Part shown: positions 43,121-64,000 of the stretch, in pieces | Layout: the number at the start of each line of letters is the position of its first letter | Numbering within the stretch: position 1 is the stretch's first letter | Source: a virus | Taxonomy: Duplodnaviria > Heunggongvirae > Uroviricota > Caudoviricetes | Virus record (IMG/VR): IMGVR_UViG_3300028888_000051 | Coordinates: 99,384 to 163,383 of that record | Length of the DNA: 64,000 nucleotides | Strand: one strand, 5' to 3' | Notes under the pieces: generated by a model | Databases searched by the model: none | Told to the model about the DNA's origin: nothing | Seen by the model: only the letters and a program-made list of their open reading frames with translations | Program-made: the position numbers and the translations under genes

Positions 43121-43188
43121 GATATTTTTATTCCAATATATAAATAAAATGAATATTCTAAGCTTCTATTTTTTATTAGAACTATAAA

Positions 43189-44070: not shown

Positions 44071-45171
44071 TTATTCTTCTTTATGATCTTCCCACCAAGC
44101 ATCAGCCGCGGCTAACTTTTGATCTTCAATATATTCTCCATAATCCCAATTTTCAAATGGATATACTTCTTCTTTTGTTTTATGAAATTCATAACCATCT
44201 TCATCTTTAGCATATACTTTTACAACTGTTGTTTCTGCTTCTGGATGATATTGTTTCCATTCCTTAGCAAAATTTTCAGCATTTTGTTTTGCTTCTTCTT
44301 CTGTATCTACTTTACCATATTCGAAAACATCTGGAGTATATTTTTGATCATCACCATAAATATCTGCTGTTAAAGTATATTCAGGATTATTTGGAATTGT
44401 TTTATCCGCACAAGCAAATAAATCTTTTCCGTTTTCATCTTTTTTTACAAATACTGCATAACCCTCTTTATAGTCTTGATTATCTAACCAATCATAATAT
44501 TCATCTTCACCATCGTATGCATTTTGAGGATCATTTGTATAACTACCACTTTTAGTATAATATTCTTTAAGACTATATCCATTATTTTCTAAAATAGTTT
44601 CAACCATTTGGCGAAAAGTAGATTTTTTTTCTACAGATTCTTTTTGAAAACTAAACTTTGAACCATTTATACGTGAATAATATGGTTGATCTGGATCAGA
44701 ATCAAATTTATTCATATTAGCCATATCACCATAACCGAAATTAACAAGTTTACGATCTTTATTATATAAACCAGATGGATAATTTTTAGTACTCATATAT
44801 ATACTATCCTGACCATATTTTTTACACATATTAAACATAAAATTTTCAAAAGCTTCTCTAGCTTTGTCATCATCCATGTTTTTATTTACAACAAAATAAG
44901 ACCTTTCTTTTACATTTTCTAAACCACCATTTAAATTTTCTTCTGGATATCCACCCATAGTTTGAGTATACCAATATCCTGCTTTTTCTATATCTTTACC
45001 TAAATCTGAACTTTTAGTTCTGTTACTCTTTTGCCAGTAATGATCACTTGGAATACTTAAATCTTTATCTAATCCATTAACTTTATGTCTATATGCAGAA
45101 ATCATACCAAGATCATATTTATTCCATGTATCAAAAAGACGAGATAGAGAAGTTTCTTGTAAATTTTTCAT
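44071..45171 (-). CDS. Two-module protein: DUF3293-like domain plus acidic domain
   Basis: TSLSRL..GMISAYR..N..LGKDI..GY..GGYPE..KERSYFV..KYGQDSI. Confidence 0.5.
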   Translation of the reverse strand: MKNLQETSLSRLFDTWNKYDLGMISAYRHKVNGLDKDLSIPSDHYWQKSNRTKSSDLGKDIEKAGYWYTQTMGGYPEENLNGGLENVKERSYFVVNKNMDDDKAREAFENFMFNMCKKYGQDSIYMSTKNYPSGLYNKDRKLVNFGYGDMANMNKFDSDPDQPYYSRINGSKFSFQKESVEKKSTFRQMVETILENNGYSLKEYYTKSGSYTNDPQNAYDGEDEYYDWLDNQDYKEGYAVFVKKDENGKDLFACADKTIPNNPEYTLTADIYGDDQKYTPDVFEYGKVDTEEEAKQNAENFAKEWKQYHPEAETTVVKVYAKDEDGYEFHKTKEEVYPFENWDYGEYIEDQKLAAADAWWEDHKEE

Positions 45172-46503: not shown

Positions 46504-47112
46504 CTAATTACTATAATGTGGTTTTGAGTCATTACCAAAATCATCACGTCCTCTTTCTTTATCAGCAAAGTATACTTCTCTATCATACTGCATAGATTCA
46601 GGAGCAGATTTATATTCTTCATATGTTAATTCTGGATTTTCATACCATTTATTAAATTCATCCATATTAAATATCTCTATATATTTATATCCGAGATCTT
46701 TAGCGATTTGTCTTTTGAGAGGATCTAATTCAGTCCAAGTATAAAGAATTTTATTATAAAAATCACCTTTTTTTGATTTTAACCAATCTACATCTATTTG
46801 ACAATTCGGATCTTTAGGATTATATGGACGCTTTCCATGTTTTATATGTTTATTAATCTGAATCATCATATTTTCAGATGGAACAAATATATCTACTTGC
46901 CAAGGCCTATGATTCTCAGGATTTCTAAAATCTTCGAAAGTTTGTGATTTTAAAGCATCTGGCCATTTCTTTTTTATCATTTCCCAATAATAATTTTCAT
47001 CTTCACTTACATTGTAACCAGAATCTTTATCAAAGATTTTTTGATCTCCCTCATCTAATGAATAGCCATTTTCAATTAAAATTTTTCTGACTAATTTTTG
47101 AAATTTACTCAT
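46504..47112 (-). CDS. PD-(D/E)xK/Vsr-like nuclease homologue with altered active site and N-terminal leader
   Basis: WQVDIFVPSENMMIQINKHIKHGKRPY..TWTELDPLKRQIAKDLGYKYIEIF. Confidence 0.6.
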   Translation of the reverse strand: MSKFQKLVRKILIENGYSLDEGDQKIFDKDSGYNVSEDENYYWEMIKKKWPDALKSQTFEDFRNPENHRPWQVDIFVPSENMMIQINKHIKHGKRPYNPKDPNCQIDVDWLKSKKGDFYNKILYTWTELDPLKRQIAKDLGYKYIEIFNMDEFNKWYENPELTYEEYKSAPESMQYDREVYFADKERGRDDFGNDSKPHYSN

Positions 47113-47124
47113 ATTAATTTATTC

Positions 47125-50100
47125 CTATTTCATAAGAGTTTCAAATGGATTGTTATTATGTTTTTTAGGAGCATCATATTGTGCTTTTGGTACCCAGAGT
47201 TTATATTCTGGTTTACCTTGTATACTTGATATATTTGCACTATATACATTTGGATCAAAATCTTTTAGTGCAGACATAACAATTTTTTCACCTTTTCTGT
47301 TACCTAAAGAATTTAGATAAATTTTTGTTACGCCTTTATATAGAGCAGGTTGTTCTTCTTCCATAATTTGTAATACAGTGAGTACTTCATCTTTTGTAAG
47401 TTTTATCCAATGACCTTGAGTACCTGTACGATTTACTTTGTTACTACTCTTAGGACCATTTATCATCATACTTAATGCTCTTTGTTCAAAAGCTTCTGGA
47501 GTATTCAATTTAAGTGTGGATGCATCTGTATATGAATAATTTATTTCACGTATTATATCATTGATATTCATAACAAAATCATGATGTTTTGCATGTTCTT
47601 TATTATTTTTATCAGTCCATGTTTTATCATCACTATTATATGTTACTTCTCTTACCAAGAAATTTGTAGGATTTTTATCTTTTTCCATACCCATAACGAT
47701 ATAATAATGAACAGGTTCCATATTTTTATCATTTTGTTTCTTTTGATTTTTCCAAGCTCTTGGCTCAACTGCAAAAGGTATATTTAAAATATTTTCTGGA
47801 ACATATTTGTCTAATTCTTTTTTAATAATATCATAATTCTGTGATTTTAAATACCAATCATCTGATTTAGCCTCATCTAATGATTCAAAATTAAGATTTT
47901 TAGGTATACTAATTTTTTGAGTAAATCTATCTTTTTTTGTAGATTTCCATTTTTCAATAGCATTAGCTTCTGGCCAACCATTATGAACAATATCATTATA
48001 TAATTTAACACGATATTGTGGAGGATAGCTAGGCAAATCTAATCTTTCCCAATTATCATAACACCATTTACGATAACGCTCATTAATATTTCTAGCCTTT
48101 TTTTCAATTGTATCTATTAAAGAATCCCAATCTTCTGTCTGTCCTTTCATTACCCAATTATACCATTTTTTATTTTTTGGATCATTAATAATCTTTTTAA
48201 AATCCTCAATTGGCATAAGATTATTTCTTTCATACTTTGGATAAATAGCATTTGTTTTTGGATCACGTACTGTAATTACTTTTGAATATAATACATTTTT
48301 TGGATCGTCACTTTTTTCAATACCGTCTAAAACTACTCCTATTTCTTTACCATTTTCATCTGTAGCAGCTAATTTTGGATGTTTATATTTAAAGTTTGGA
48401 TGAATTTCATTATAACAAAATTCAAGCATTTCATCAACTTTAGCAATATCTTTCATATTATCAATATAAGATTCAGGAGTCATATTTGATAAATTTTTTC
48501 CAACATATTCTTCAAGTTTATTAATTGTCTCTTTAGCTAATTTACGACATGTATTACTAAATTTTGTGCTTTCTTTAATCTTTTGAATAGTATTTTTAAC
48601 TTTTTCTTTATAACCGTCATTACAGGTAGCTAAAATATCTTCTAGTTTAGATATGGCTTCATCAGAATTTGTATATTTACTCATTAAGCCATCAGCTAAT
48701 TCTTGTTCAGATTTATTTTTTAAATCATCTTCAGATATTTCTATATCTTTTTTATCTGTAAATTCAGCTTCAAGTATTGATTCTAAAGATAAATCTTCAC
48801 TTTCTGCATCATAATAAGCATCTTTTAAACGTGCTAATATGCCAGAATTACGTAAATGCTTAAATAAAGTATTAGATGGACCAAATTCACCTTCATTCGC
48901 AAGACCTTCTTTACGAATATCCCATATCATTTTAATGATACCTTCTAATTTATCTTTATCTTTTTCTGAAATAGCATCTTCAATTTGTATTTGAATTTCA
49001 TCAAAATAAGGCTGTTCTGGTTCTTCTATTTCAATATTAGCATTTTCTGGTTCTTTTACCCAAGAGTTACTAATTAAAGAATAAATACCAGATGTAACTA
49101 AAGGTTCTGCTTTATTTTCAGCTCCAACTTCAACTGGAAGACCTTTAACTGTAATATCATGAGTATCATTAAAAATACGTTTAGCAGATTGTAAATATTT
49201 TGATAAAATCTCAGCCATTTGACCAGCTTCTTCAAAATCATATACCAAATGTACATCTATATCACTATTTTCATTATAATTATAATTTGCTTCACTACCT
49301 GTAAAATAAATATCTACTGGTTTAATTGGAAGTTTTAATTTATCTTTAAATTCATTAGCAATTCTAAGTAAAGCTTGACGTACATCTTCTTTTAATTCTT
49401 TGTCATCAAATAAATCTTGATTAAGTTTTGAATTAGTTTTGTCTTCTACAATATTATTCATTTGTTTTACTTTAGCTAAATCATCAGTATAATGCATTAA
49501 AGCTGTAGCACCATCATTTACAAAAGCCTCTGTTTTTGTATTATTATCTTTTAATTGTTCATATGTTTTATATAATGCAGATAAAAACTCAGATTCATGT
49601 GCTTTATCATTAAAATAATCAAAGCCGACATTTATTGGCTGAGCATATCCTTTAACTGGATCAGCTATAGTATGGTCATTATCAATTAATTCATTCGCTT
49701 TATCATTAACTACTGCAAACATAGCTTTTTTAAGTAATTTTTCATCAATATTTTTAGAAGGATCATTAATTATGTCATTAATTATTGTATCTACATATCT
49801 AGGAGTAGATTCTATAGGTTTTGTTTTAATAAGATTTTTCCATTTTTCAACAACTTGCATAGCTAATTTTTGTTCAGCTGATGTATATGTTCTTGGATCT
49901 TCTTTATCTAACATATTTTTGAGTATAGTTGTAGTATTAACATCATTGTTTTTTATAGATCTATTTAATTCTTTTTCTAAAGATTTACGTAATTTATTCT
50001 TATCACCAATTTTAGATATAAATTCTCCACTAAAATCTCCACCGAATATAGGATTACCTGGTTTTTCACCTTTATTTAATTTATATCCTTGCTGAATAAG

Positions 50101-51519
50101 TCTTTCTTGATTATCTATATTTTGATTAGAATAATACATTCCTTGAATATATTTTATTCTATTTAATATATCTTCAGTTTGTTTATCTTTTTCTTCTTTG
50201 GAAAGACTATCATCTGCTTGAATTACATCTAATTTAGAATATAACTCATTTACATTATATAAATTTTCTCTAGCATTAGTTTTTATATCTTCAGCTTGTT
50301 TATTTAATTCAGCTAATTTATTTGCTTTTTCTTCATCTGATAAAGAATTATCACTATTGATTTCTGCTTTTTGTATAGATATATTATCTAATTGCTTACG
50401 TGTTTCATCATCAAAATTAAAAGCAGCACTGGTTTGTTTTCCAATTCTACTTACAGTTTCCTTAGTTTTTGCCATTTTAGCTTTAGCTGCTTTTAATTGT
50501 CTTTCTAAATCAGCTTTTTCTTCATTTGTTAATGTGTCATCTTCTAAAGTAGATTGTAAGTGTTTAACTTCATTAATTGCTTGAATATTCATTTCATTTG
50601 CAATTTTAAAAGCGTCTATAGATGTATCTTTAGATTTTCCTGGTACTTGATACTGATTATTTTCTAAATGACCAGCTGTACTATTTAAAGCTAATTTACT
50701 AGCTATTATTGGTTGAGAACGATTATCATCAATTACAAATGCTAAATTTTCATAAGGTACATAGATACCATCATTTTTCATGGTTTCATTACGAATATCA
50801 CGATAAATCAATGGATTAAATATTTTATTAAGTTCTATTTTTCTTTTTGTTTTATCATTTGCTTTTTCTGGAACTTGAGCATTTAATAAATGATTATATA
50901 GGTATCCTTCTTCTGGACGCTCTCTATCTTTATCACCATAAACTCTCAAAAGCTTATCATACTGAGGTTGTCCATTAACAACAGGATAAACTTTAATTAT
51001 ATGTTTACTTATTTCATTATCTTGTTGTGCTTGTCTTAATATTTGTTGAGCCAGATCATAATCAAAATCTTCAGTTAATGTTATATTTTCATTATTTTCA
51101 ACTGATTCAAAGCTAGCTTCAATACCCATTGTTTGTGGATCTCCTTTACGTCCTTCACGGTTAATATATGGTAAATCATGTAAAAGTTTTTTATAATATC
51201 TTGATAATACATTATTGTTTATCCATTTTGATACAGCTGTACTAAGCATTAAATAGCCATCAACTGGAGTTTCTGCATTTTTTTGAATCCAATCCCAAAT
51301 TCTTGATTCATAAGCTCTTCTAAGGTATTTATCTTGTTTTGTCATTTTTTCATACATATCTTTTTTATCACGAAATTTACCCGTAACTATATGAAATTTA
51401 TTTTCTTTGGTATCAAATACTATACCTGTATAATTTTCATATGCAGATTTATGAGGATTAGCTTTATCATCTTCAGTTAATGTTATTCGATCAAAACTTG
51501 GAAATAATGTAATAGTCAT
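47125..51519 (-). CDS. 1464-aa multidomain protein containing a pol-beta-type nucleotidyltransferase
   Basis: FTGSEANYNYNENSDIDVHL..GEFGPSNTLFKHLRNSG; three D.(S/T)L(S/T).EEK repeats. Confidence 0.75.
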   Translation of the reverse strand: MTITLFPSFDRITLTEDDKANPHKSAYENYTGIVFDTKENKFHIVTGKFRDKKDMYEKMTKQDKYLRRAYESRIWDWIQKNAETPVDGYLMLSTAVSKWINNNVLSRYYKKLLHDLPYINREGRKGDPQTMGIEASFESVENNENITLTEDFDYDLAQQILRQAQQDNEISKHIIKVYPVVNGQPQYDKLLRVYGDKDRERPEEGYLYNHLLNAQVPEKANDKTKRKIELNKIFNPLIYRDIRNETMKNDGIYVPYENLAFVIDDNRSQPIIASKLALNSTAGHLENNQYQVPGKSKDTSIDAFKIANEMNIQAINEVKHLQSTLEDDTLTNEEKADLERQLKAAKAKMAKTKETVSRIGKQTSAAFNFDDETRKQLDNISIQKAEINSDNSLSDEEKANKLAELNKQAEDIKTNARENLYNVNELYSKLDVIQADDSLSKEEKDKQTEDILNRIKYIQGMYYSNQNIDNQERLIQQGYKLNKGEKPGNPIFGGDFSGEFISKIGDKNKLRKSLEKELNRSIKNNDVNTTTILKNMLDKEDPRTYTSAEQKLAMQVVEKWKNLIKTKPIESTPRYVDTIINDIINDPSKNIDEKLLKKAMFAVVNDKANELIDNDHTIADPVKGYAQPINVGFDYFNDKAHESEFLSALYKTYEQLKDNNTKTEAFVNDGATALMHYTDDLAKVKQMNNIVEDKTNSKLNQDLFDDKELKEDVRQALLRIANEFKDKLKLPIKPVDIYFTGSEANYNYNENSDIDVHLVYDFEEAGQMAEILSKYLQSAKRIFNDTHDITVKGLPVEVGAENKAEPLVTSGIYSLISNSWVKEPENANIEIEEPEQPYFDEIQIQIEDAISEKDKDKLEGIIKMIWDIRKEGLANEGEFGPSNTLFKHLRNSGILARLKDAYYDAESEDLSLESILEAEFTDKKDIEISEDDLKNKSEQELADGLMSKYTNSDEAISKLEDILATCNDGYKEKVKNTIQKIKESTKFSNTCRKLAKETINKLEEYVGKNLSNMTPESYIDNMKDIAKVDEMLEFCYNEIHPNFKYKHPKLAATDENGKEIGVVLDGIEKSDDPKNVLYSKVITVRDPKTNAIYPKYERNNLMPIEDFKKIINDPKNKKWYNWVMKGQTEDWDSLIDTIEKKARNINERYRKWCYDNWERLDLPSYPPQYRVKLYNDIVHNGWPEANAIEKWKSTKKDRFTQKISIPKNLNFESLDEAKSDDWYLKSQNYDIIKKELDKYVPENILNIPFAVEPRAWKNQKKQNDKNMEPVHYYIVMGMEKDKNPTNFLVREVTYNSDDKTWTDKNNKEHAKHHDFVMNINDIIREINYSYTDASTLKLNTPEAFEQRALSMMINGPKSSNKVNRTGTQGHWIKLTKDEVLTVLQIMEEEQPALYKGVTKIYLNSLGNRKGEKIVMSALKDFDPNVYSANISSIQGKPEYKLWVPKAQYDAPKKHNNNPFETLMK

Positions 51520-51609
51520 TGTTAAAAAACCTTAAAATTATATAACTTTATACTAGAACTTAATTATATTATTTATAGATTTTATTGTTTATTTTTGGAA
51601 AATTAAGGT

Positions 51610-51638
51610 TTTACTTTTTATAAATTTTATACTATATA
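51610..51638 (+). promoter_or_regulatory. Sigma70-like promoter TTTACT-N17-TATATA
   Basis: Begins TTTACTTTTTATA like the 46138 site; precedes ORF 51667 (AAGGAG RBS). Confidence 0.4.
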
Positions 51639-51666
51639 TTTAAATATATTTTTAAGGAGTATATAA

Positions 51667-51888
51667 ATGCGTGTTATCAATCTTGATGCAACTGGAATTA
51701 AAATTATAACATCTGATAAAAAACAAATGTATTTATCATTAGCTGAAGTAAGAGATTTTTTAGACAAAAAATATAAGTTAACTGAAAATATTTTATCTAT
51801 TAATAATAAAAAACTTATTTTATCTGATAAAGATATAGACGAATTTCCAAGCATTGTAACATACATAGAAAATAATTTTAAGAGTTAA
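51667..51888 (+). CDS. Small hypothetical protein
   Basis: AAGGAG RBS; 73 aa. Confidence 0.65.
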   Translation: MRVINLDATGIKIITSDKKQMYLSLAEVRDFLDKKYKLTENILSINNKKLILSDKDIDEFPSIVTYIENNFKS

Positions 51889-51890
51889 TT

Positions 51891-52115
51891 ATGTTTAAAA
51901 GAAATAAAGAAAAACCGATATATAAAGAAATAGATGAAACTTTTCTTAAAAAACTTCATCTATTTGAATCTATTGATGGTAATTATAATGAATTAGGATT
52001 TGAAATTGTATATACTCGAATTCCAGGCGGTTTAATTCGTACTATTATTACTCCTGAAGCATTAGATCAATTATTTATACCTTTACCTGCTTCATATTTT
52101 ATATTAAAAGATTAG
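51891..52115 (+). CDS. Small hypothetical protein
   Basis: Coupled to ORF 51667; VYTRIPGGLIR. Confidence 0.65.
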   Translation: MFKRNKEKPIYKEIDETFLKKLHLFESIDGNYNELGFEIVYTRIPGGLIRTIITPEALDQLFIPLPASYFILKD

Positions 52116-52468
52116 TTTACAAGATATTCTATCTGATTTGGTGATATTTTTAAAATAGCTAAAATAAAAGCTTTAACATCACAAGTCAATCTTTTATCAA
52201 ATATTTTTTCTATATCTTTGAGAATTAAATAATCTTCTTCTGAAATTAAATTTTTAATATTTTCTAATTTTACTTTATCTAAGGCTAAACAACGTAATGA
52301 ATCTACTGCAAGAAATTCAAGTTTCGTTCTTTGTTTTTTCATAATATAACCAAAAGCTTTATTCCAAGCAGTTGTTTCATCTATATTGTTAGTTTTTACT
52401 TTTATTTTAACATTTACAGAAATTTTTGGTGTTTTTCTTCCATCTCCAAATATATCAATTTTATTCAT
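52112..52468 (-). CDS. Hypothetical protein
   Basis: 118-aa ORF; stop overlaps the convergent stop. Confidence 0.6.
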   Translation of the reverse strand: MNKIDIFGDGRKTPKISVNVKIKVKTNNIDETTAWNKAFGYIMKKQRTKLEFLAVDSLRCLALDKVKLENIKNLISEEDYLILKDIEKIFDKRLTCDVKAFILAILKISPNQIEYLVN

Positions 52469-52472
52469 AAAA

Positions 52473-52823
52473 TTAGTCCTTTTTATAATCTATTCCAAAA
52501 GTTAACCAGTTAAATTTTTGTTCACTATTTACAATATCTTGAACTGCTTTACTTGTCATATATTTATTCATTTCTTTAAAAAAGTTGTCATCTTTAGTGT
52601 TTATAATTTTTACTTTTTCTTTATCAAAATCTATTAAAAGACGTTCACCACAATTTAAAGCTTCTAAAATTTTTTTAATTTGTATTTCATTAAAACTTTG
52701 ATGTAAAAATAAATCAAAATCAAAATATTTCATTGTTTGACTTAATTTTTTATCATTATCTTTAAGCCAAATTAAATTATAATTTTTTTCAACTATATAT
52801 ATTCCTTTCAAAACTTTATTCAT
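52473..52823 (-). CDS. Hypothetical protein
   Basis: 116-aa ORF downstream of portal. Confidence 0.6.
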   Translation of the reverse strand: MNKVLKGIYIVEKNYNLIWLKDNDKKLSQTMKYFDFDLFLHQSFNEIQIKKILEALNCGERLLIDFDKEKVKIINTKDDNFFKEMNKYMTSKAVQDIVNSEQKFNWLTFGIDYKKD

Positions 52824-52824
52824 T

Positions 52825-54600
52825 TTAAACCTTTTCAGATTGATAAATTAAAGTAACAGATTCTTTTAACGTCATATCTCTACTTGTAATATTTTCATAA
52901 ACTTCTTTTAATAATTTAGTTTGATAAACATTTTCTTTGTTATAATTATCTGATTTTACCCTATATTTTACTGATTCACCTAATTCTGAATCAGAAATAA
53001 ATTTAGATGGATCTTTAACTTTTTGACCATTTAAGAAATTAGCTAATTCATCTGTGCTAGTTCCTAAAACATTAATAGATGTATTACTACATATTAATGA
53101 AGCAATGTCTGCTGGTAAACCGAGTTTAATTAATACTTGATATTTATTTACAGTTGTCATAGCTGGGTTTAATTCCATTAATGATTTTAATAATTCACCA
53201 ATATCATTATATTTTTGTATTACATCAGCTGGAATTTGAATAGGTTCATTTAAACTTACTTCTATATCCATTCTACTAACATCATAACCACCATGAGTTA
53301 AAATATTTTCAATAAGATTCATCATACAATTTAATAAACCTTGTTTTAATGGAATTAATGTACGTTTCAATTTAAGGTCTTGAGCTTCAAGAGTTTGAGC
53401 AGTTGTAATAACATCTTCACCAACTAAATAACCTTTTGGAAGTTTAGAATTACGTAATATTTTATCTAAAAAGTATTCTACGTCTTCAGTTTGACCTAAA
53501 TCAATATTTGCTTCAATTTTATCAAATGTAACTTTTTTACCATCTGCAGCTTCTGGTAAAGTTAAAATAGACATGGCTCCAGGTAATTTACGTCCGAGTT
53601 TTGGAGCATTTGTATCACTAAACATTGAATTAAGATATTGAGTTCTAAACTCATTTAGAAACTGTGCTGAATCTGGTAAAGATATACCATTAGGAAGAGG
53701 TACATAAAATACTAATCTTTGTAATTTAGAAGCACGTGAAATACCAAGTAAACCTTCTAAGGTAGTTAATTGATCAAAAGCAGAACGCATTGACCATAAC
53801 ATTGATTTACCATAAGGTTCTGTAAGGTCATCATACAATTTTCCATGTACAAATTGCCAAGGTTGCCAAATTCTTTTTTGTGTTTTAGCTGTAACACTCA
53901 TAGTATTAACATAATTTGGTTCGCTTTCTACTTCATAATTAATTACATTAAAATATTCATCAGTGTTTACTCTAAATCTATGTGGATTAACATAAGAAAT
54001 AATTAAATCTTCTAATACATCTATTCGTTTAAAATCTTTTACATCTTGTTCTGTCATCCATGTTTCAAGATATGGATAAGATAAAAGTAAACCTATATTA
54101 CCATATTTTGCTAATGAACGAGTTAAACTAGGAAGGCGCTGATAAATTTTATTTTTATATAACACTTTTTCTACAAAAGTTTGTGCATTTTTATTTGAAA
54201 TTTTTATATTTAATGGATTTTCTACAAAACCTTGAGAAAGTACTTCTGCTACATATGTATCTAAAATTAATGAAATTTCAGATAAATTTTCATCCATAGT
54301 ATCTACAGTTTGATATATATCTTTCAGTGTTTCATAATTTTTACTAAAAAACGTGTAAGTACTTAAAAAATCATCATATAATTCAAACATTTCTTTTGTA
54401 TGTTTGAATGCCGTAGGAATAGAAATATATTGACCAGATTTAGTTTGACCAATAGTAAAGTTATGTTTTTTAGCTAAACCTTTTAATACATCAAAAGATA
54501 TACCTGGTTCTGCTAAAAATAATGTATCATTTTCTTTATCATAAAAACCATTTTCTGTAATTAATTTTGCTATTCTTTTTGCATCTTTACTAATTGCCAT
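52825..54600 (-). CDS. Portal protein (T4 gp20-like)
   Basis: RSLAKYGN..WQFVH..PYGKSML..FDQLTTLE..SRA..RLVFYV..EDVEYFLDKI...KLPKGYL. Confidence 0.85.
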   Translation of the reverse strand: MAISKDAKRIAKLITENGFYDKENDTLFLAEPGISFDVLKGLAKKHNFTIGQTKSGQYISIPTAFKHTKEMFELYDDFLSTYTFFSKNYETLKDIYQTVDTMDENLSEISLILDTYVAEVLSQGFVENPLNIKISNKNAQTFVEKVLYKNKIYQRLPSLTRSLAKYGNIGLLLSYPYLETWMTEQDVKDFKRIDVLEDLIISYVNPHRFRVNTDEYFNVINYEVESEPNYVNTMSVTAKTQKRIWQPWQFVHGKLYDDLTEPYGKSMLWSMRSAFDQLTTLEGLLGISRASKLQRLVFYVPLPNGISLPDSAQFLNEFRTQYLNSMFSDTNAPKLGRKLPGAMSILTLPEAADGKKVTFDKIEANIDLGQTEDVEYFLDKILRNSKLPKGYLVGEDVITTAQTLEAQDLKLKRTLIPLKQGLLNCMMNLIENILTHGGYDVSRMDIEVSLNEPIQIPADVIQKYNDIGELLKSLMELNPAMTTVNKYQVLIKLGLPADIASLICSNTSINVLGTSTDELANFLNGQKVKDPSKFISDSELGESVKYRVKSDNYNKENVYQTKLLKEVYENITSRDMTLKESVTLIYQSEKV

Positions 54601-57545: not shown

Positions 57546-57597
57546 TATTTTTTATCCAAAATTATAATATATACTAGAACTAAATTATATGGATATG

Positions 57598-57652: not shown

Positions 57653-59302
57653 TTACATCATTGGCATACCTTGCATATTTAAATTTACGCCATTATTTTC
57701 AACAGGATCAGTTGTAATAATTACAGATGAAGTTAAAGCAACTGACGCAATAGATGAAGCTGCAAAAACTGCACCCTTGACGGCCTTAGTTGGATCAATA
57801 ATGCCATCTTTTAACATATTTGCAATTTTCATAGTAGCTACATTATAACCATATTCTAAAGGTTGAGCTAATACTTGTGGAATAATAACATCAGCATGTA
57901 AACCTGCATTTTCAACAATAGTCTTAAATGGAGCTCTTAAAGCTGTAGCAAAAATAGTATTACCAATTTTTTCATCTTCATTATCTGTATTAGAAATAAC
58001 TTCATTTAATGTATCAGCAAGTCTAAGTAATGTTACACCACCGCCTGGTAAATAACCTTCTTCTAAAGCAGCTTTAACTGCAAATTGAGCATCTTCTAAT
58101 CTATCCCGTAATTCTTTGATTTCTTCTTCAGATGAACCACCAACTTTAATTACAGCTACTCCAGTTGTTAAAGCAGCTAAACGTTTATTCAATACATCTT
58201 TTTCCCAAGTTGCATTTTCTTTAAGATTATTGATTTCACCTTTAATTGCTTCTACTCTAGCTTTAATGTCATCTTCATTACCATGACCACCACTAATAAC
58301 TGTTTCATCACGTTTAATGATAATTTTATCACAAGAACCAAAATCTGCTTCTGACATAGCTTCAAATTTAATACCTAAAGGATCATCACCTACTCTCGCT
58401 CCTAAATATAAAGCCATATCACGTAATCTATCCAATCTGGCATCACCATAAGAAGGAGCTTCAACACAAGCAACTTTAAGCTGACCACCAGAACGAATAA
58501 TATTCATAGCAAGACCTTGTGTAACTGATGTATCAAATGATTCAGCAATAATTACTAAGGGCTGACCTCTTGATAATGTTGTTTGAATAATATCTGCTAA
58601 TGTTTTAAAATTTGAAATTTTTGAATTACATAACAAAATTAAAGGTTTATCAAATTCTACTGTTTGATTTTCGTGATTAGTAATAAAAAATTGAGAAGTC
58701 CAACCTTTATCAAAAGTCATACCTTCTTTAAATTCAAGACGAATATCTCTATCCTTTGTTTCTTCAACAATTACTACACCATCTTTACCAACTTTACGAT
58801 AAGCTTCTGCAACAATACCACCTAATTTTTTATCTCCGTTAGCAGAAACAATCGCAACATTATTTAAATCTTCATCTTTTTCAATATCTTTACTCATGTT
58901 GTCTAATTTTTCAATTACATAATCACGAGCTTTTTCAATACCATGACGAAGAGATGTACGATTAATAGTATTTTCTGATAATTCAAGTTGACGTACACCT
59001 GTATTTACAATTGCTTGAGCTATAACTGTTGCAGTTGTTGTTCCATCACCAACTGAATCGAGTTGTTTTTGTGCTACAGAGATAGCTAAATCTGCACCAA
59101 GTTTAATTTTTTCATCTTTAGGAGCAATTTCTTTAGCAACACTAATACCATCTTTTGTAATTAAAGGACTTTTATCTTCTCTTTGAATCACGACTGTTCT
59201 ACCAGCATATCCAAGTGTTGTTTTTACAGCATTTGCAACTAAATTAATACCATCAACTAAAGCATTTTGAGCTTCTTTATTAAAATAAGCCGATCTACTC
59301 AT
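57653..59302 (-). CDS. groEL: Group I chaperonin GroEL
   Basis: ITKDGISVAKEI, GDGTTTAT, EGMTFDKG, GVAVIKVGG, RLEDA, IIDPTK. Confidence 0.97.
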   Translation of the reverse strand: MSRSAYFNKEAQNALVDGINLVANAVKTTLGYAGRTVVIQREDKSPLITKDGISVAKEIAPKDEKIKLGADLAISVAQKQLDSVGDGTTTATVIAQAIVNTGVRQLELSENTINRTSLRHGIEKARDYVIEKLDNMSKDIEKDEDLNNVAIVSANGDKKLGGIVAEAYRKVGKDGVVIVEETKDRDIRLEFKEGMTFDKGWTSQFFITNHENQTVEFDKPLILLCNSKISNFKTLADIIQTTLSRGQPLVIIAESFDTSVTQGLAMNIIRSGGQLKVACVEAPSYGDARLDRLRDMALYLGARVGDDPLGIKFEAMSEADFGSCDKIIIKRDETVISGGHGNEDDIKARVEAIKGEINNLKENATWEKDVLNKRLAALTTGVAVIKVGGSSEEEIKELRDRLEDAQFAVKAALEEGYLPGGGVTLLRLADTLNEVISNTDNEDEKIGNTIFATALRAPFKTIVENAGLHADVIIPQVLAQPLEYGYNVATMKIANMLKDGIIDPTKAVKGAVFAASSIASVALTSSVIITTDPVENNGVNLNMQGMPMM

Positions 59303-59303
59303 T

Positions 59304-59639
59304 TTATTTTCCTTTTTCTAAAATTTCACCATTAACTTCTTTAGCGATAATATCAGAAGCATGAACTTTGATATATTTTTTACCACCTAAACTAATTTTT
59401 GTACCTGCAACTTTAGGAAAAACAATAATATCTCCAACATAAATATTATTTGGAATAAAATTGCCTTTCTCCCAATATCCTTCTGAACAAGATAAAACTT
59501 CACCATATGTAAAATCTTGTTCTAAAGAATCAGGTACATATAAACCACCAATTTTTTCTTCTTTAGTAATTTCCCCAACAAAAACGTTAGGACCCATAGC
59601 TTGATAAATTTTACTCATATTAATTTTCCTCTTCTTCAA
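59304..59639 (-). CDS. groES: Co-chaperonin GroES
   Basis: GGLYVP mobile loop, GEVLS..G, VGDI.VF, DIIA; directly upstream of groEL. Confidence 0.85.
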   Translation of the reverse strand: MKKRKINMSKIYQAMGPNVFVGEITKEEKIGGLYVPDSLEQDFTYGEVLSCSEGYWEKGNFIPNNIYVGDIIVFPKVAGTKISLGGKKYIKVHASDIIAKEVNGEILEKGK

Positions 59640-59838
59640 AATAATCTATAATATTATCTTTACCTGCTAAAACAGTATCATCATCTAAAATTAAAGATGG
59701 TGTTTGTTTAATATTATATTGCTCTACTAAATTTTCATGTTCAGTTACATCAATAATATCAATATCTATATTATTTTCTTGAAAATATTGCTTAACCATT
59801 TTACATGGCATACATCCAGGCATTGTCAATAAACGCAT
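59620..59838 (-). CDS. Glutaredoxin/NrdH-like redoxin
   Basis: CMPC active site, QTP cis-Pro motif. Confidence 0.9.
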   Translation of the reverse strand: MRLLTMPGCMPCKMVKQYFQENNIDIDIIDVTEHENLVEQYNIKQTPSLILDDDTVLAGKDNIIDYFEEEEN

Positions 59839-59851
59839 AGTCTTTTCCTCT

Positions 59852-60034
59852 CTAAAACCAAATGATATCTTTCATTGTTTGAAAAAGATTTTTATTTTTC
59901 TTTTTTTCTTTTTTATCCTGTTGAGTTTTTGTTTCTGCTTTTACTTCAATTGTTTTTTCTAAAAGTTTTGTATCTTCATTTTTCTTAGATACTCTCTTAG
60001 ATATTGATTGTTTAGTATTTTTCTTTGTAGTCAT
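59852..60034 (-). CDS. Small Lys-rich protein
   Basis: 60 aa, AAGGA RBS. Confidence 0.55.
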   Translation of the reverse strand: MTTKKNTKQSISKRVSKKNEDTKLLEKTIEVKAETKTQQDKKEKKKNKNLFQTMKDIIWF

Positions 60035-60112
60035 GACTAATCCTTATCCTATTTATACTATATTATAGAATTCATATAATGAATTTAAAATTCAAATTAT
60101 TTTTCCAATTAT

Positions 60113-61612
60113 TTATATTATAATTATCTGAGCTGTATTATTTTCATGTATTAAAACATTAGCGTGTATCCACTTAGTCATACCTTTTTGATTATAATTT
60201 ACAATAAGTTTGGATAATGTACCAGCATAAATAGTATTTCCATTTATAGCACAACTATGTGTATGACCAACAATACAATTTTCAAAAGTTTTATTAAAGG
60301 CATTTGGACTACCAAAAGCACCAGATATACCTGAATCACCGTGCTCAGAAAGTTCAAAACCACATATTTCAAAACTTTCATTTCTAGGTAAATATTCAAA
60401 ATTATTTGGTAGGTGAGGATCTAAAATATGCTTTCCATCGCAATAATCCATAAAAAGTTCTGCACCTATTCTAGCATTTGTTTTATCTTTTACAAATTCA
60501 CCTGTATCCAACCATTTTTCAACAAAAGTATCATGATTTGAATTGACAATTTTAAATTTTGTGTTAGAACAAACTTGTGATAAATTCCATATTTTATCAA
60601 CAACTACTTTCATTTCATTACCTAGACAAGCATTTTCAAAAGTTATATTTTGAGCATTAAATAAAGCTTTTCCAAAATTATGATGACAAATACTATTCCA
60701 AGAAGCAATATCATGTAGCATTACATATTCAGGATTATATTTTTTTATAAATTCAATAGTTTTATCTAAAGCAATTTTATCTTCATCAGGTAAATGTAAA
60801 TCACCTAAAACAATAGCCGGTATAGTTTTATTTTTAACTATTTTATTCATATAGTATTTAATATCTAAATCACAAATACAATTATCATTAAATACTAAAT
60901 TACGTATTACATATCTGTTTTTTTCTTGATTCCATTCTAAAAGAATTGCACCATATTTATGATATTTATTATCAATATTTCCAGCAATTGTATCTTTGTA
61001 TTCTGGTAAAGACAATGTACCTGTTGAACATCCTATTCTATAAGGCATATATTGCTTATATGGAAAGACTTCTAAATATTGTTTAGTTGAACCAACTATT
61101 ATAGTTCTTAAATTTGTTGATAATTTATCTAAATTTGATAATGGATTTTTTTGTGTAATAGGAATAAGAAAATCTTGAGCAACACATGATTTATCTTTTT
61201 CAAAAACAAATTTCGTTGCTAAATATGGTTTCAATAAAGCAAAAATATCTTTTGAAAAAGTTTCATTTTTTCTAATACTTTTACCCCATAAAATACCTAA
61301 CTCTGCTTTATTAGTTTTACAGTAAGTCATTAAACATTTATAAAATTCTAAATTTATTTCTGAACCATCATTTACATGTGTAATTACAATTTTATCTATA
61401 TTTTTATCAAATACTTTTTCTAAATTTGTGCGTGTAACTAAAAGATTTTCTTCAACTTCTTTGACAAAATTTGTCCAATTGCCCCAAATTTTTTCAATTA
61501 AAGATGATGAATATTCTGGTTGTAATTTACGATATTCACTTCTAGATAATCTTTTATTACTTAGTTCACATAAATGTTTGAAATAATTAATAATTTCTAT
61601 TCTATTCATCAT
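60113..61612 (-). CDS. Metallophosphoesterase with N-terminal HTH-like repeat
   Basis: GDLH, HD, NHD, EHGD, GHTH motifs. Confidence 0.8.
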   Translation of the reverse strand: MMNRIEIINYFKHLCELSNKRLSRSEYRKLQPEYSSSLIEKIWGNWTNFVKEVEENLLVTRTNLEKVFDKNIDKIVITHVNDGSEINLEFYKCLMTYCKTNKAELGILWGKSIRKNETFSKDIFALLKPYLATKFVFEKDKSCVAQDFLIPITQKNPLSNLDKLSTNLRTIIVGSTKQYLEVFPYKQYMPYRIGCSTGTLSLPEYKDTIAGNIDNKYHKYGAILLEWNQEKNRYVIRNLVFNDNCICDLDIKYYMNKIVKNKTIPAIVLGDLHLPDEDKIALDKTIEFIKKYNPEYVMLHDIASWNSICHHNFGKALFNAQNITFENACLGNEMKVVVDKIWNLSQVCSNTKFKIVNSNHDTFVEKWLDTGEFVKDKTNARIGAELFMDYCDGKHILDPHLPNNFEYLPRNESFEICGFELSEHGDSGISGAFGSPNAFNKTFENCIVGHTHSCAINGNTIYAGTLSKLIVNYNQKGMTKWIHANVLIHENNTAQIIII

Positions 61613-62343
61613 TTTTTACTCACTGTCTTAGATTTCTTTTTGGGTTTACTAATAATTTTCTTTTTCTTCTTTTCTCTTTCTGCCTTGGCTAATTCTTTAA
61701 TATGTTTTTGATAAATTTCTTCAAAATCAATTCTTGCTTTTTCTTCTTCATTTTTTAATACTAAATCATGCTCAATAATATGATCACATAAACCATATTT
61801 TAAACATTGATCTGCATTTAAAATTCCTCTTTCGTCTTCATATAATTTATCTAATAAATTAATAGATAATTTACCATCACTACAATCTAAATATAAATTT
61901 TTAATATTTTCTGTATATTCTGTATTTTGCTTATAAATTTTTTCTATTTCTGTTTGTTTTGTAGTAACATTAAAAAGTGTGCCAAAATGTAAATGATGTG
62001 TAGCTATTTTACTCATAAATCTTTCTGTACCATGTACAGCTATAAGTGAAGCAGCTGAAGCTACATGTCCTAAAACAAAGGTTTCTAAAGTAATATTATA
62101 AAGCTTAGCTATATTCATAAGTCCAATAATATTCATCATTACAAATGATTCACCACCGGGCGAATTAATAAAAAATTGTAATCTTTTACCCATATTATCT
62201 GGATTAAATATAAAATTACTTAGATCACCAATTAAATATGCACAATTTTCAGTAGTTATTTCATCTAAAATAAAAACTTTATCTGTAAACATATAATTTC
62301 TAGGAACTTGTTGCATAATCGTATCTGTAGTTCCTGACCACAT
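61609..62343 (-). CDS. clpP: ClpP-like serine protease subunit
   Basis: FINSPGG, VASAAS, HHLH, KYGLCDHII. Confidence 0.85.
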   Translation of the reverse strand: MWSGTTDTIMQQVPRNYMFTDKVFILDEITTENCAYLIGDLSNFIFNPDNMGKRLQFFINSPGGESFVMMNIIGLMNIAKLYNITLETFVLGHVASAASLIAVHGTERFMSKIATHHLHFGTLFNVTTKQTEIEKIYKQNTEYTENIKNLYLDCSDGKLSINLLDKLYEDERGILNADQCLKYGLCDHIIEHDLVLKNEEEKARIDFEEIYQKHIKELAKAEREKKKKKIISKPKKKSKTVSKK

Positions 62344-63108: not shown

Positions 63109-64000
63109 ATGAAAAACATTTTCGAAAACACAAAAAATTTAATATCTGAAACATTAAACAAACTTATATTAACTGAAGATGAAGATAAGTTTGTTTCAGT
63201 GATTGATAATAATAAATTTGATTCCTCTAAATTGAATGCTAATATTTATGATACAAAAGATAATATCGATCCAGATAAAGAAGAAGAAAAAAATAAATTA
63301 ACTTCTCAAGCTATTGAAAAAATTAAACAAAATCTTAAAGTATCTGATGAATTACAGTCTATTCTCAATAGAATAGATAAATTAAATAAAGATATAAAAT
63401 CTAATGATTGGCAAGTTAATGAAGAAAAGAATACAGCTATTTTGAGAAGCAAAAATGCTAGAATTTTTAAACAAAATAATAATCTGTGTCTATCTCATAA
63501 TGATAAAGTTGAAATATTTAAATCTGTTCCTGAATTACATGCTTGGTTAAAGAAAAATAATTATCCTTTACCAAAAAATATTAAATTGCACGAATCAAAA
63601 GATAATAATCCTTATATTTTATTAGGCAAAATTTGTCAACATTCAGATGAAAATTCATGGATTCAAAAAAAGGCTCTCGAGCTAGCAAATGGATTTGAAC
63701 ATAATGAAATTGATTATAATACATTTTATAATAGATTAAATGACTTAATTATGTTAAATAATTTTAATATAAATGAAGCAGTATTAACCGAAGAAGATGA
63801 GATTCCTGATGAAAATGCTCCTATTTATGATTTTGTTAATGATGATTCTGAATTAAGTAGATTAAAAAATCGTTACAAAGATACAAGATGGGCTCAAATC
63901 ATAGGTAAAAGATGGGGTGATTTAGGAAAAGTTATTGATGTAATGACTCCAGAAGAACGTGCAGAACAACAAAGACAAGATTCATGGGCTAATACTTATA
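63109..64000 (+). CDS. Partial ORF running off the window (absent from the ORF track), candidate internal head protein
   Basis: MKNIFENTKNLISETLNKLILTEDE..KLHES..INEAVLTEE..; no stop seen before 64000. Confidence 0.8.
   Translation, partial: MKNIFENTKNLISETLNKLILTEDEDKFVSVIDNNKFDSSKLNANIYDTKDNIDPDKEEEKNKLTSQAIEKIKQNLKVSDELQSILNRIDKLNKDIKSNDWQVNEEKNTAILRSKNARIFKQNNNLCLSHNDKVEIFKSVPELHAWLKKNNYPLPKNIKLHESKDNNPYILLGKICQHSDENSWIQKKALELANGFEHNEIDYNTFYNRLNDLIMLNNFNINEAVLTEEDEIPDENAPIYDFVNDDSELSRLKNRYKDTRWAQIIGKRWGDLGKVIDVMTPEERAEQQRQDSWANTY

Follow-up and report, generated by a model that had tools for sequence, protein, structure and literature searches.

This report concerns a giant gene of a tailed phage and the nucleotidyltransferase (NTase) that it encodes. 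The gene lies in a stretch of 64,000 nucleotides (nt; the whole stretch is hereafter called the window), bases 99384-163383 of the 227,383-bp IMG/VR record IMGVR_UViG_3300028888_000051 (CheckV completeness 95%, about 27% G+C). Kinship with T4 follows from matches to a Portal_T4 portal, a Gp23 capsid protein and a head maturation protease, and the source is, to judge from these genes, an uncultured T4-related jumbo phage of 227 kb. The parts of the giant open reading frame (ORF), designated P0001, are given below in window coordinates; residues are counted in amino acids (aa), and the confidence of the AlphaFold2 (AF2) models is given as the predicted local distance difference test (pLDDT).

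47125-51519, minus strand: giant ORF P0001, 1464 aa in one intact frame, with full-length homologs at 36-91% identity
51472-51519, minus strand: N-terminal leader of 16 aa, M-x-I-x-L-F-P...L-T-E16/D, a candidate capsid-targeting or propeptide sequence
51106-51471, minus strand: conserved N-terminal domain, aa 17-138, with a folded core at about aa 28-120 (AF2 pLDDT 75.6)
51070-51114, minus strand: disordered acidic linker with S-F-E138/S and L-T-E150/D (pLDDT <50 for aa 133-152)
49453-51069, minus strand: variable, charged, partly coiled-coil linker, aa 151-689, of low conservation and with many indels
49444-49452, minus strand: I-V-E692/D, candidate prohead-protease site directly before the NTase
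48781-49443, minus strand: NTase module of the DNA polymerase β (Pol-β) fold, aa 693-913, core and C-terminal helical lobe
49255-49299, minus strand: catalytic motif G741-S742...S752-D753-I-D755, invariant in alignments A1, A2 and A3
49129-49131, minus strand: third carboxylate E797 on the V-E-V-G strand, invariant in A1 and nearly so in A2
48769-48792, minus strand: L-S-L-E913/S-I-L-E917/A, C-terminal signature of the NTase family and module boundary
47128-48780, minus strand: C-terminal extension, aa 914-1464, with conserved I-K-E983/S and L-D-E1216/A

Architecture of the giant protein

There are 26 full-length or near-full-length homologs of P0001, and in an alignment of 25 proteins, P0001 included, strong conservation is confined to aa 1-140 and aa 661-913; the intervening stretch and the one that follows are variable and rich in indels. 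An invariant VNDG motif (aa 667-670) closes the variable linker. All of the approximately 75 fused homologs conserve both the leader-bearing N-terminal domain and the NTase. Since the same N-terminal domain is also found in all 50 proteins carrying the closest NTases, the conserved core of this lineage is, on sequence comparison, a leader, an N-terminal domain, a variable linker and an NTase. Approximately half of the fused homologs stop 4-8 residues past the NTase, and the remainder bear an extension of 500-800 aa. L006, a relative, has the genes for GroES, GroEL, the portal, two 119-aa proteins, an 844-aa protein and a 527-aa protein in this order; the 844-aa protein ends a few residues past LSLE, and the next gene, which overlaps it, codes for the 527-aa protein, a collinear homolog of P0001 residues 912-1444 (E 4e-13). 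Because the L006 gene splits there, the module boundary at the end of the NTase is a genuine one.

The other parts of the chain resemble little that is known. No recognisable fold was found for the N-terminal domain, whose AF2 model (pLDDT 75.6) gave a top PDB match of Z 3.3, and the ESM Atlas returned nothing usable for either the N-terminal or the C-terminal parts. The approximately 550 C-terminal residues have no Pfam, PDB or Atlas match. A BFVD match of the N-terminal domain to a protein labelled 'large polyvalent protein-associated domain' (E 9e-3, root-mean-square deviation [rmsd] 24 Å) was not counted as evidence.

The nucleotidyltransferase module

A sequence-only reading of the window had recognised an NTase with a GS..SDID..VE catalytic pattern embedded in a giant protein at 48780-49455. 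This interval, on the minus strand, corresponds to residues 689-913 of the single intact 1464-aa ORF, and the pattern is indeed present as G741-S742, S752-D753-I-D755, and E797 in V-E-V-G. The Pol-β superfamily signature, hG[GS], 9-13 residues and [DE]h[DE]h, reads here as G741-S742, ten residues and D753-I-D755-V, and E797 sits on strand E131-139 of the AF2 model, the neighbouring β-strand on which the superfamily places its third carboxylate. Catalytic residues are invariant in 25 full-length homologs as well as in two sets of more distant family members (57 and 41 sequences). Profile searches agree: phrog_36119, a family of stand-alone proteins, matches aa 683-912 with an E-value of 2e-37, and the Pfam family NTP_transf_2 (PF01909), also matched by 19 of 41 multi-domain relatives, is matched marginally, at 21.5 bits with the whole protein and 24.3 bits with the excised domain for a gathering cut-off of 21.

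The AF2 model of aa 664-933, built from 57 sequences, has a mean pLDDT of 86; in it, an NTase core leads into a helical lobe, and residues 664-692 fall below 50. Structural superposition of this model reveals the α-β-α-β-β core of the superfamily. Alignment with VIA-align retrieved minimal NTases (MNT) first, 2rff with Z 7.1 (104 aa, rmsd 4.2) and 1ylq with Z 6.5 (87 aa, rmsd 3.5), followed by a tie between TENT5 (Z 6.2) and CdnE (6wt8, Z 6.0). Foldseek against the PDB gave weak two-lobed matches only (E ≥ 1e-3, template modelling [TM] score about 0.25), among them the aminoglycoside nucleotidyltransferase (ANT) ANT(9) (6xz0, E 1.1e-3, TM 0.24), and an all-against-representatives structural search was swamped by generic helical-bundle matches to the C-lobe.

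Assignment to a characterised subfamily was not obtained. Searches of solved structures by sequence, using either the single sequence or a 57-sequence profile, gave nothing significant. The NCBIfam models for MntA and ANT(9) scored 14 bits against a cut-off of 60 and 15 bits against a cut-off of 340, respectively, and no HEPN domain, the partner of MntA, was found in P0001 or in the flanking ORFs. The Pol-β fold proposed in the sequence-only reading is nevertheless upheld by the Pfam and PHROG matches, the confidently modelled core, the similarity to 2rff and 1ylq and the invariant catalytic residues; the module is a real Pol-β NTase of an uncharacterised subfamily and, given this conservation, presumably an active one.

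Candidate processing sites and the prohead protease

Prohead proteases of the gp21 family cut after glutamate in short motifs, and the motif of the T4 enzyme is L/I-x-E. Documented motifs of other members are S/A/G-x-E in phiKZ, where an S-L-E site is known from gp93, and A-x-E in SPN3US (PMC5694885). The junction motifs listed in the sequence-only reading are all present in P0001, namely NIVE/D (E692), SLE/S (E913), ILE/A (E917), LTE/D (E16 and E150), FES (E138) and LDE/A (E1216). Hydrophobic-x-Glu occurs 30 times in the protein, and only E16, E150, E692, E833, E983 and E1216 are conserved to at least 80% at both positions. In 51 homologs E16 is invariant and L14 nearly so, within a leader that reads M-x-I-x-L-F-P...L-x-E; L14-T-E16 provides an N-terminal leader ending in L/I-x-Glu, for which capsid targeting is a candidate role. 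E150, in L-T-E/D, is one of only two columns conserved to at least 90% between aa 140 and 660, and lies in a segment of pLDDT <50 together with the nearly invariant E138-S139.

A further such site directly precedes the NTase. Its consensus is G-T-[IFV]-x-E, and 44 of the 47 fused homologs have it within 16 residues of where the module begins, whereas hydrophobic-x-Glu is encountered in 16.7% of 16-residue linker windows of the same proteins and before the module in 20 of 87 stand-alone homologs; a binomial P for 44/47 against this background is not a true probability, the sequences being related, and the contrast is large. E692 itself is located in the disordered linker segment (pLDDT <50). 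The tetrapeptide LTED occurs six times in the proteome for 1.5 expected, and all six copies fall in three proteins: one in the major capsid protein, two in P0001 and three in a 976-aa neighbour. In the capsid protein it stands 15 residues ahead of the start of the Gp23 profile match which, by analogy with T4, would be the expected spot of the propeptide junction.

By homology, the genome encodes a T4 gp21-type prohead protease. A 994-aa ORF located 15.6 kb past the end of the window begins with it: the N-terminal 250 aa match phrog_207, 'head maturation protease' (E 1e-11), and in a tblastn search this region retrieves prohead core proteases of the gp21 type annotated in T4-like vibriophages (E 3e-8, with 29% identity across 82% of the query). 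Considering the conservation in 44 of 47 homologs, the disordered linker, the likeness to the LTE/D of the capsid junction and the presence of this protease, IVE692/D looks like a real processing site.

Head-gene context and expression

The following features precede the giant gene.

52825-54600, minus strand: T4 gp20-type portal gene (Pfam Portal_T4, E 7e-13)
52112-52823: two small genes between the portal gene and the giant gene
51547-51559, minus strand: promoter-like AAGTTCTA-GTATAAA element, 40 nt upstream of the ATG of the giant gene

The order portal, two small genes, giant gene is the same in L006. The gene for the major capsid protein, which matches Pfam Gp23 above the cut-off, is found approximately 46 kb upstream of the window.

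In the promoter-like element, AAGTTCTA is preceded by a TATAAATA box at a distance of a few bases. The hexamer GTTCTA is found in the correct orientation within 80 nt upstream of 43 ORFs, including those for the protease, a scaffold-like ORF, tail genes and several neighbours of P0001, a distribution that fits co-expression of P0001 with structural genes. The longer form (A/T)AGTTCTA occurs 123 times over the two strands, and 43 ORFs have one 25-75 nt upstream in the correct orientation (for instance at 51547-51559, 57568-57580 and 43170-43182, all on the minus strand); it is likely a core promoter element of the phage. The 13-base element GTTCTAGTATAAA as a whole is not enriched, with 9 matches for 6.2 expected; the upstream pattern resides in the GTTCTA core only.

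Distribution and partners of the nucleotidyltransferase family

A search of the whole library retrieved relatives of the NTase in 3,580 clusters at E ≤ 0.001 and in 2,891 at E ≤ 1e-10. The module is found at the C-terminus of proteins of 700-1050 aa, at the N-terminus of proteins of more than 1100 aa, internally, in tandem and alone. In P0191 (496 aa), for example, two NTase modules follow each other, and in some relatives the NTase forms the N-terminus of proteins of 1100-1800 aa and is followed by DUF5662. A Pfam scan of 41 multi-domain relatives found DUF5662 (5), S-adenosylmethionine (S-AdoMet) lyase (3), ART-PolyVal (2), Amidoligase_2 (2), PBECR2, HNH and an intein. DUF5662, S-AdoMet lyase, Amidoligase_2, HNH and intein partners are typical conflict domains, and ART-PolyVal and PBECR2 are families defined from polyvalent proteins (PMC5512222). 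Because its relatives are fused to ART-PolyVal, PBECR2, amidoligase and S-AdoMet lyase domains, the NTase behaves, as far as its fusions tell, as a module of polyvalent proteins. A literature search on DUF5662 and on virion-packaged NTases found nothing relevant.

Among the cultured phages of INPHARED, stand-alone forms of the NTase occur in T4-like cyanophages, the Maribacter phage Molly, Lak megaphages and others. In the cyanophage S-CRM01, g125 adjoins primase and ribonucleotide reductase genes.

Proposed explanation and alternatives

With moderate confidence, P0001 is interpreted from these sequence features as a head-internal, protease-processed cargo protein of the polyvalent type, the conserved payload of which is an active NTase. 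P0001 would be made late, alongside the structural proteins, and would enter the prohead core by means of its 16-aa leader, its conserved N-terminal domain, or both. There, the gp21-type (MEROPS S77) protease would cut after glutamate in hydrophobic-x-Glu motifs, likely at E16, E150 and E692 and possibly at E913/E917, E983 and E1216, so as to release a two-lobed Pol-β NTase of approximately 25 kDa. The pieces would remain beside the packaged DNA and follow it into the cell. There, ahead of all phage gene expression, the NTase would attach a nucleotide (most likely AMP) to a hydroxyl on a host target, in the service of counter-defence or host take-over. The sequence-only reading had likewise proposed an NTase delivered with the genome. 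What stands of that proposal is an NTase in a giant protein of the head-gene block, a conserved upstream junction and a gp21-type protease; delivery, excision and function are what we infer from them. A bolder and rather doubtful extension is that the phage-specific family of two-lobed NTases, some 3,600 clusters strong, represents a ready-made counter-defence enzyme, which a widespread clade of gut and rumen jumbo phages pre-loads within a polyprotein and frees by means of the protease, so that a host immune protein, RNA or signalling molecule would be nucleotidylated before phage transcription.

Several results weigh against this explanation, first on packaging and then on cutting. P0001 could instead be a late multidomain protein of the cytoplasm, or one associated with assembly, for instance an assembly factor or a modifying enzyme that acts on virion proteins, DNA or RNA when infection is advanced; its adjacency to the portal gene would then reflect co-regulation only. 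We consider this unlikely, though it is the strongest of the alternatives. Stand-alone homologs in S-CRM01 and on a 164-kb contig sit among early or DNA-metabolism genes, including those of replication and nucleotide metabolism, and because homologs such as S-CRM01 g125 keep such company the family is, by its genomic distribution, not intrinsically virion cargo; the neighbourhoods of five stand-alone homologs share no common partner pointing to a substrate. Searches of Pfam, PHROGs, the ESM Atlas and structures returned no homology of P0001 to a known virion protein or a known capsid-targeting domain, and in INPHARED the N-terminal domain is absent from all cultured phages, only the NTase module being present. 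The leader, moreover, may be structural instead of a removable tag, since its residues 10-14 are modelled by AF2 as a β-strand of the N-terminal domain. What tells for cargo is the conserved position next to the portal gene, the invariant L-x-E leader, the LTE/D motif common to P0001 and the capsid protein, and the fusion of the NTase family to domains of polyvalent proteins.

Alternatively, P0001 could be packaged and remain uncut between its modules, with the leader removed at most and the NTase working within the large chain; G-T-[IFV]-x-E and VNDG would then be docking or regulatory elements, not cut sites. The virion RNA polymerase of N4 is packaged unprocessed (PMC5512222), the co-conservation of the N-terminal domain and the NTase in all fused homologs suggests joint action, and VNDG, invariant approximately 22 aa upstream of E692, is no cut-site motif. 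In addition, [LIVM]-x-E-[DASGN] is no denser in P0001 than background, at 0.61 per 100 aa for 0.56 genome-wide, the Pfam S77 match of the putative prohead protease (E 0.007) is under the cut-off, and a second protease, of the ClpP type (Pfam E 1e-14), is encoded nearby in the window.

The downstream half of the supposed bracket around the NTase fares poorly. L-S-L-E913 is invariant in fused proteins, equally in those that end right after the NTase, and the serine at P3 of SLE/S is not hydrophobic. LSL(E/D/N) is a C-terminal signature of the entire NTase family, including free-standing proteins of 230-270 aa that end shortly after it. Since stand-alone forms bear this signature and about half of the fused homologs stop there, conservation of LSLE is no argument for cleavage, and the motif was rejected as a sign of it, being kept where nothing follows. 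I-L-E917/A is closer to the phage's own motif, and a hydrophobic-x-Glu of some kind occurs no more than 4-6 residues past LSLE in most homologs, a weak pattern in an acidic tail. The claim that the module is bracketed by cleavage-type sites is accordingly retained for the upstream IVE692/D and given up for SLE/S. An uncut chain nonetheless appears improbable, more so than the absence of packaging: the hydrophobic-x-Glu before the module is specific to the fused forms and lies in a disordered linker, the same LTE/D marks the propeptide junction of the capsid protein, and L006 has the chain as two genes split at the module border.

A third possibility, that the NTase is a cGAS/DncV-like NTase (CD-NTase) making or mimicking an immune signal, is very improbable. 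The two-lobed architecture is alike, CdnE appears among the VIA-align neighbours, and CdnE and CdnD (6p8u, E 2.5e-3, probability 0.97, TM 0.27, rmsd 16 Å) are among the weak top matches of Foldseek. Against this, TM scores of about 0.25 with rmsd above 15 Å accompany such matches, and equally weak ones are obtained with ANT(9), AadA, ANT(4'), TENT5 and MNT proteins. No cyclase model of the cyclic-oligonucleotide-based antiphage signalling system (CBASS) in PADLOC matched at E ≤ 1, the sole PADLOC match being PDC-S09 (E 9e-4), and no SMODS-type Pfam match was found in P0001. We also take the S-D-I-D-x-H of P0001 to be closer to the MNT and ANT families than to CD-NTases. The CD-NTase affiliation suggested in the sequence-only reading is thus not sustained, no CBASS cyclase model being matched and the structural similarity being weak and generic. 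Finally, that the NTase is an inert, degenerate domain retained for structure is barely credible: its Pfam score lies just above the cut-off, but the catalytic residues and the basic residues R869, K887 and R890 of the C-lobe are invariant across hundreds of divergent sequences, in a family spanning 2891 clusters at E ≤ 1e-10.

Should the bolder reading hold, with a pre-loaded NTase acting in counter-defence, the NTase would constitute a new enzymatic class of injected anti-defence effector. Injected phage proteins are at work during the first seconds of infection, while exposure of the genome to host defences is at its greatest. To our knowledge, few enzymatic cargos have been described, namely the T4 Alt ADP-ribosyltransferase, the virion RNA polymerases of N4 and phiKZ, and P1 Dar, and an NTase would add a new chemistry to them while offering a handle on a very common family of phage enzymes, the relatives of phrog_36119. 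P0001 is also a clean test case for asking if prohead proteases of the T4 type cut polyvalent proteins with several modules into individual effectors. If not packaged, it would be an unremarkable late multidomain protein with an uncharacterised NTase.

Neighbouring genes

Several other ORFs of the region carry comparable motifs. The 976-aa ORF that begins in the window (63109-64000, continuing to G000:C1:165422; L001:693-3623) has a leader ending in K-L-I-L-T-E/D and two more internal LTE/D (aa 489 and aa 861); neither Pfam nor PHROGs gave a match, and the ORF is probably, from its motifs, a second head-cargo polyprotein with the same site motif. A 237-aa ORF directly after the protease (G000:C1:182056-182769, equivalent to window positions 82673-83386, plus strand) contains eight [LIVM]-x-E-[DASGN], the top density among genome ORFs of at least 150 aa (background 0.56 per 100 aa), and is likely a gp22-type scaffold degraded by the protease. 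The portal (52825-54600, minus strand) bears an N-terminal leader A-K-L-I-T-E/N-G and may itself be trimmed; a similar leader, R-K-I-L-I-E/N-G, begins the 202-aa ORF that immediately follows the giant gene (46504-47112, minus strand).

Upstream of the portal block, at 57653-62343 on the minus strand, lie genes for GroEL (phrog_5725, E 5e-130), a GroES-like ORF, a small thioredoxin-like ORF, a metallophosphoesterase annotated 'DNA transfer protein' and the ClpP-type protease; this GroEL/GroES/ClpP cluster is syntenic in L006. Between the portal operon and the giant gene, an island of approximately 590 bp (51627-52115) apparently holds two small plus-strand genes (about 51657-51885 and 51891-52115), antisense to the head genes. 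In the late block that holds the giant gene, a 366-aa ORF (44071-45171, minus strand) matches S-AdoMet lyase of the T3 SAMase-like type (Pfam PF23780, E 6e-6, 26.6 bits for a cut-off of 28). Since this domain is also joined to the NTase family of the giant gene in 3 of 41 relatives, the 366-aa ORF is a candidate packaged anti-restriction enzyme.

Comparison with known systems

The nearest precedents for the mechanism are Alt and the internal proteins of T4, which carry a capsid-targeting leader, undergo processing by gp21 and are injected, and the ejection proteins of the giant phages phiKZ and SPN3US, which are processed at multiple sites. Both groups of proteins are packaged, and their cuts fall after x-X-Glu (PMC5694885). 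As with T4 Alt and IPI-III, the genome of P0001 encodes a T4-type portal, a capsid protein and a gp21-type protease, the protein begins with a short leader ending in L/I-x-Glu, and an enzymatic effector is encoded among late genes; as reported for Alt, the candidate cuts after glutamate include C-terminal ones (PMC5694885). Alt is an ADP-ribosyltransferase, however, whereas the effector of P0001 is a Pol-β NTase. P0001 also differs from Alt and IPI-III in being a multi-module chain of 1464 aa with internal candidate sites, and its conserved N-terminal domain of 120 aa is without a T4 counterpart. The ejection and inner-body proteins of phiKZ and SPN3US are likewise large and head-internal, with long propeptides and several x-X-Glu cuts made by a gp21-related protease, but they share no sequence homology with P0001 and no NTase cargo has been described among them; their motifs are S/A/G-x-E or A-x-E, while the dominant motif of the present phage is L-T-E/D.

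It has been proposed that polyvalent proteins, encoded among late genes, are packaged and accompany the DNA on its delivery (Iyer, Burroughs, Anand, de Souza, Aravind 2017; PMC5512222). P0001 resembles them in its giant size, its multiple modules, its vicinity to virion genes (it lies downstream of the portal gene in conserved synteny) and its predicted delivery with the DNA. Polyvalent proteins combine at least two unrelated effector domains, and in P0001 the NTase alone is recognisable as such, beside three other modules. Pfam, PHROGs and NCBIfam revealed no peptidase domain in P0001, unlike the zincin-like metallopeptidase that is frequent, though not obligatory, in polyvalent proteins, so that processing would fall to the prohead protease. 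The Pol-β NTase described among polyvalent proteins is a minimal, four-stranded form linked to ArdC-N in conjugative elements of firmicutes (PMC5512222), whereas that of P0001 belongs to a two-lobed phage family of approximately 220 aa.

As regards the enzyme, its best structural and profile neighbours are the MNT/MntA and ANT adenylyltransferases (2rff, 1ylq, ANT(9), AadA), with which it shares the Pol-β core and G-S...S-D-I-D...E and, in the case of the ANT enzymes, a helical C-terminal lobe; it differs from them in scoring far below their family cut-offs and in having no HEPN partner. The stand-alone NTases of 210-270 aa (phrog_36119, S-CRM01 g125, Molly gp026, Lak) are similar across the whole module, at 31-37% identity with E-values down to 1e-23, and keep the catalytic residues and the C-terminal LSL motif. 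Unlike P0001, they are free-standing genes, often amid non-structural genes, and lack both the N-terminal domain and the conserved hydrophobic-x-Glu before the module. Packaged cargo freed by a protease is a familiar phage strategy, and the enzyme that P0001 would probably bring to it is an uncharacterised one.

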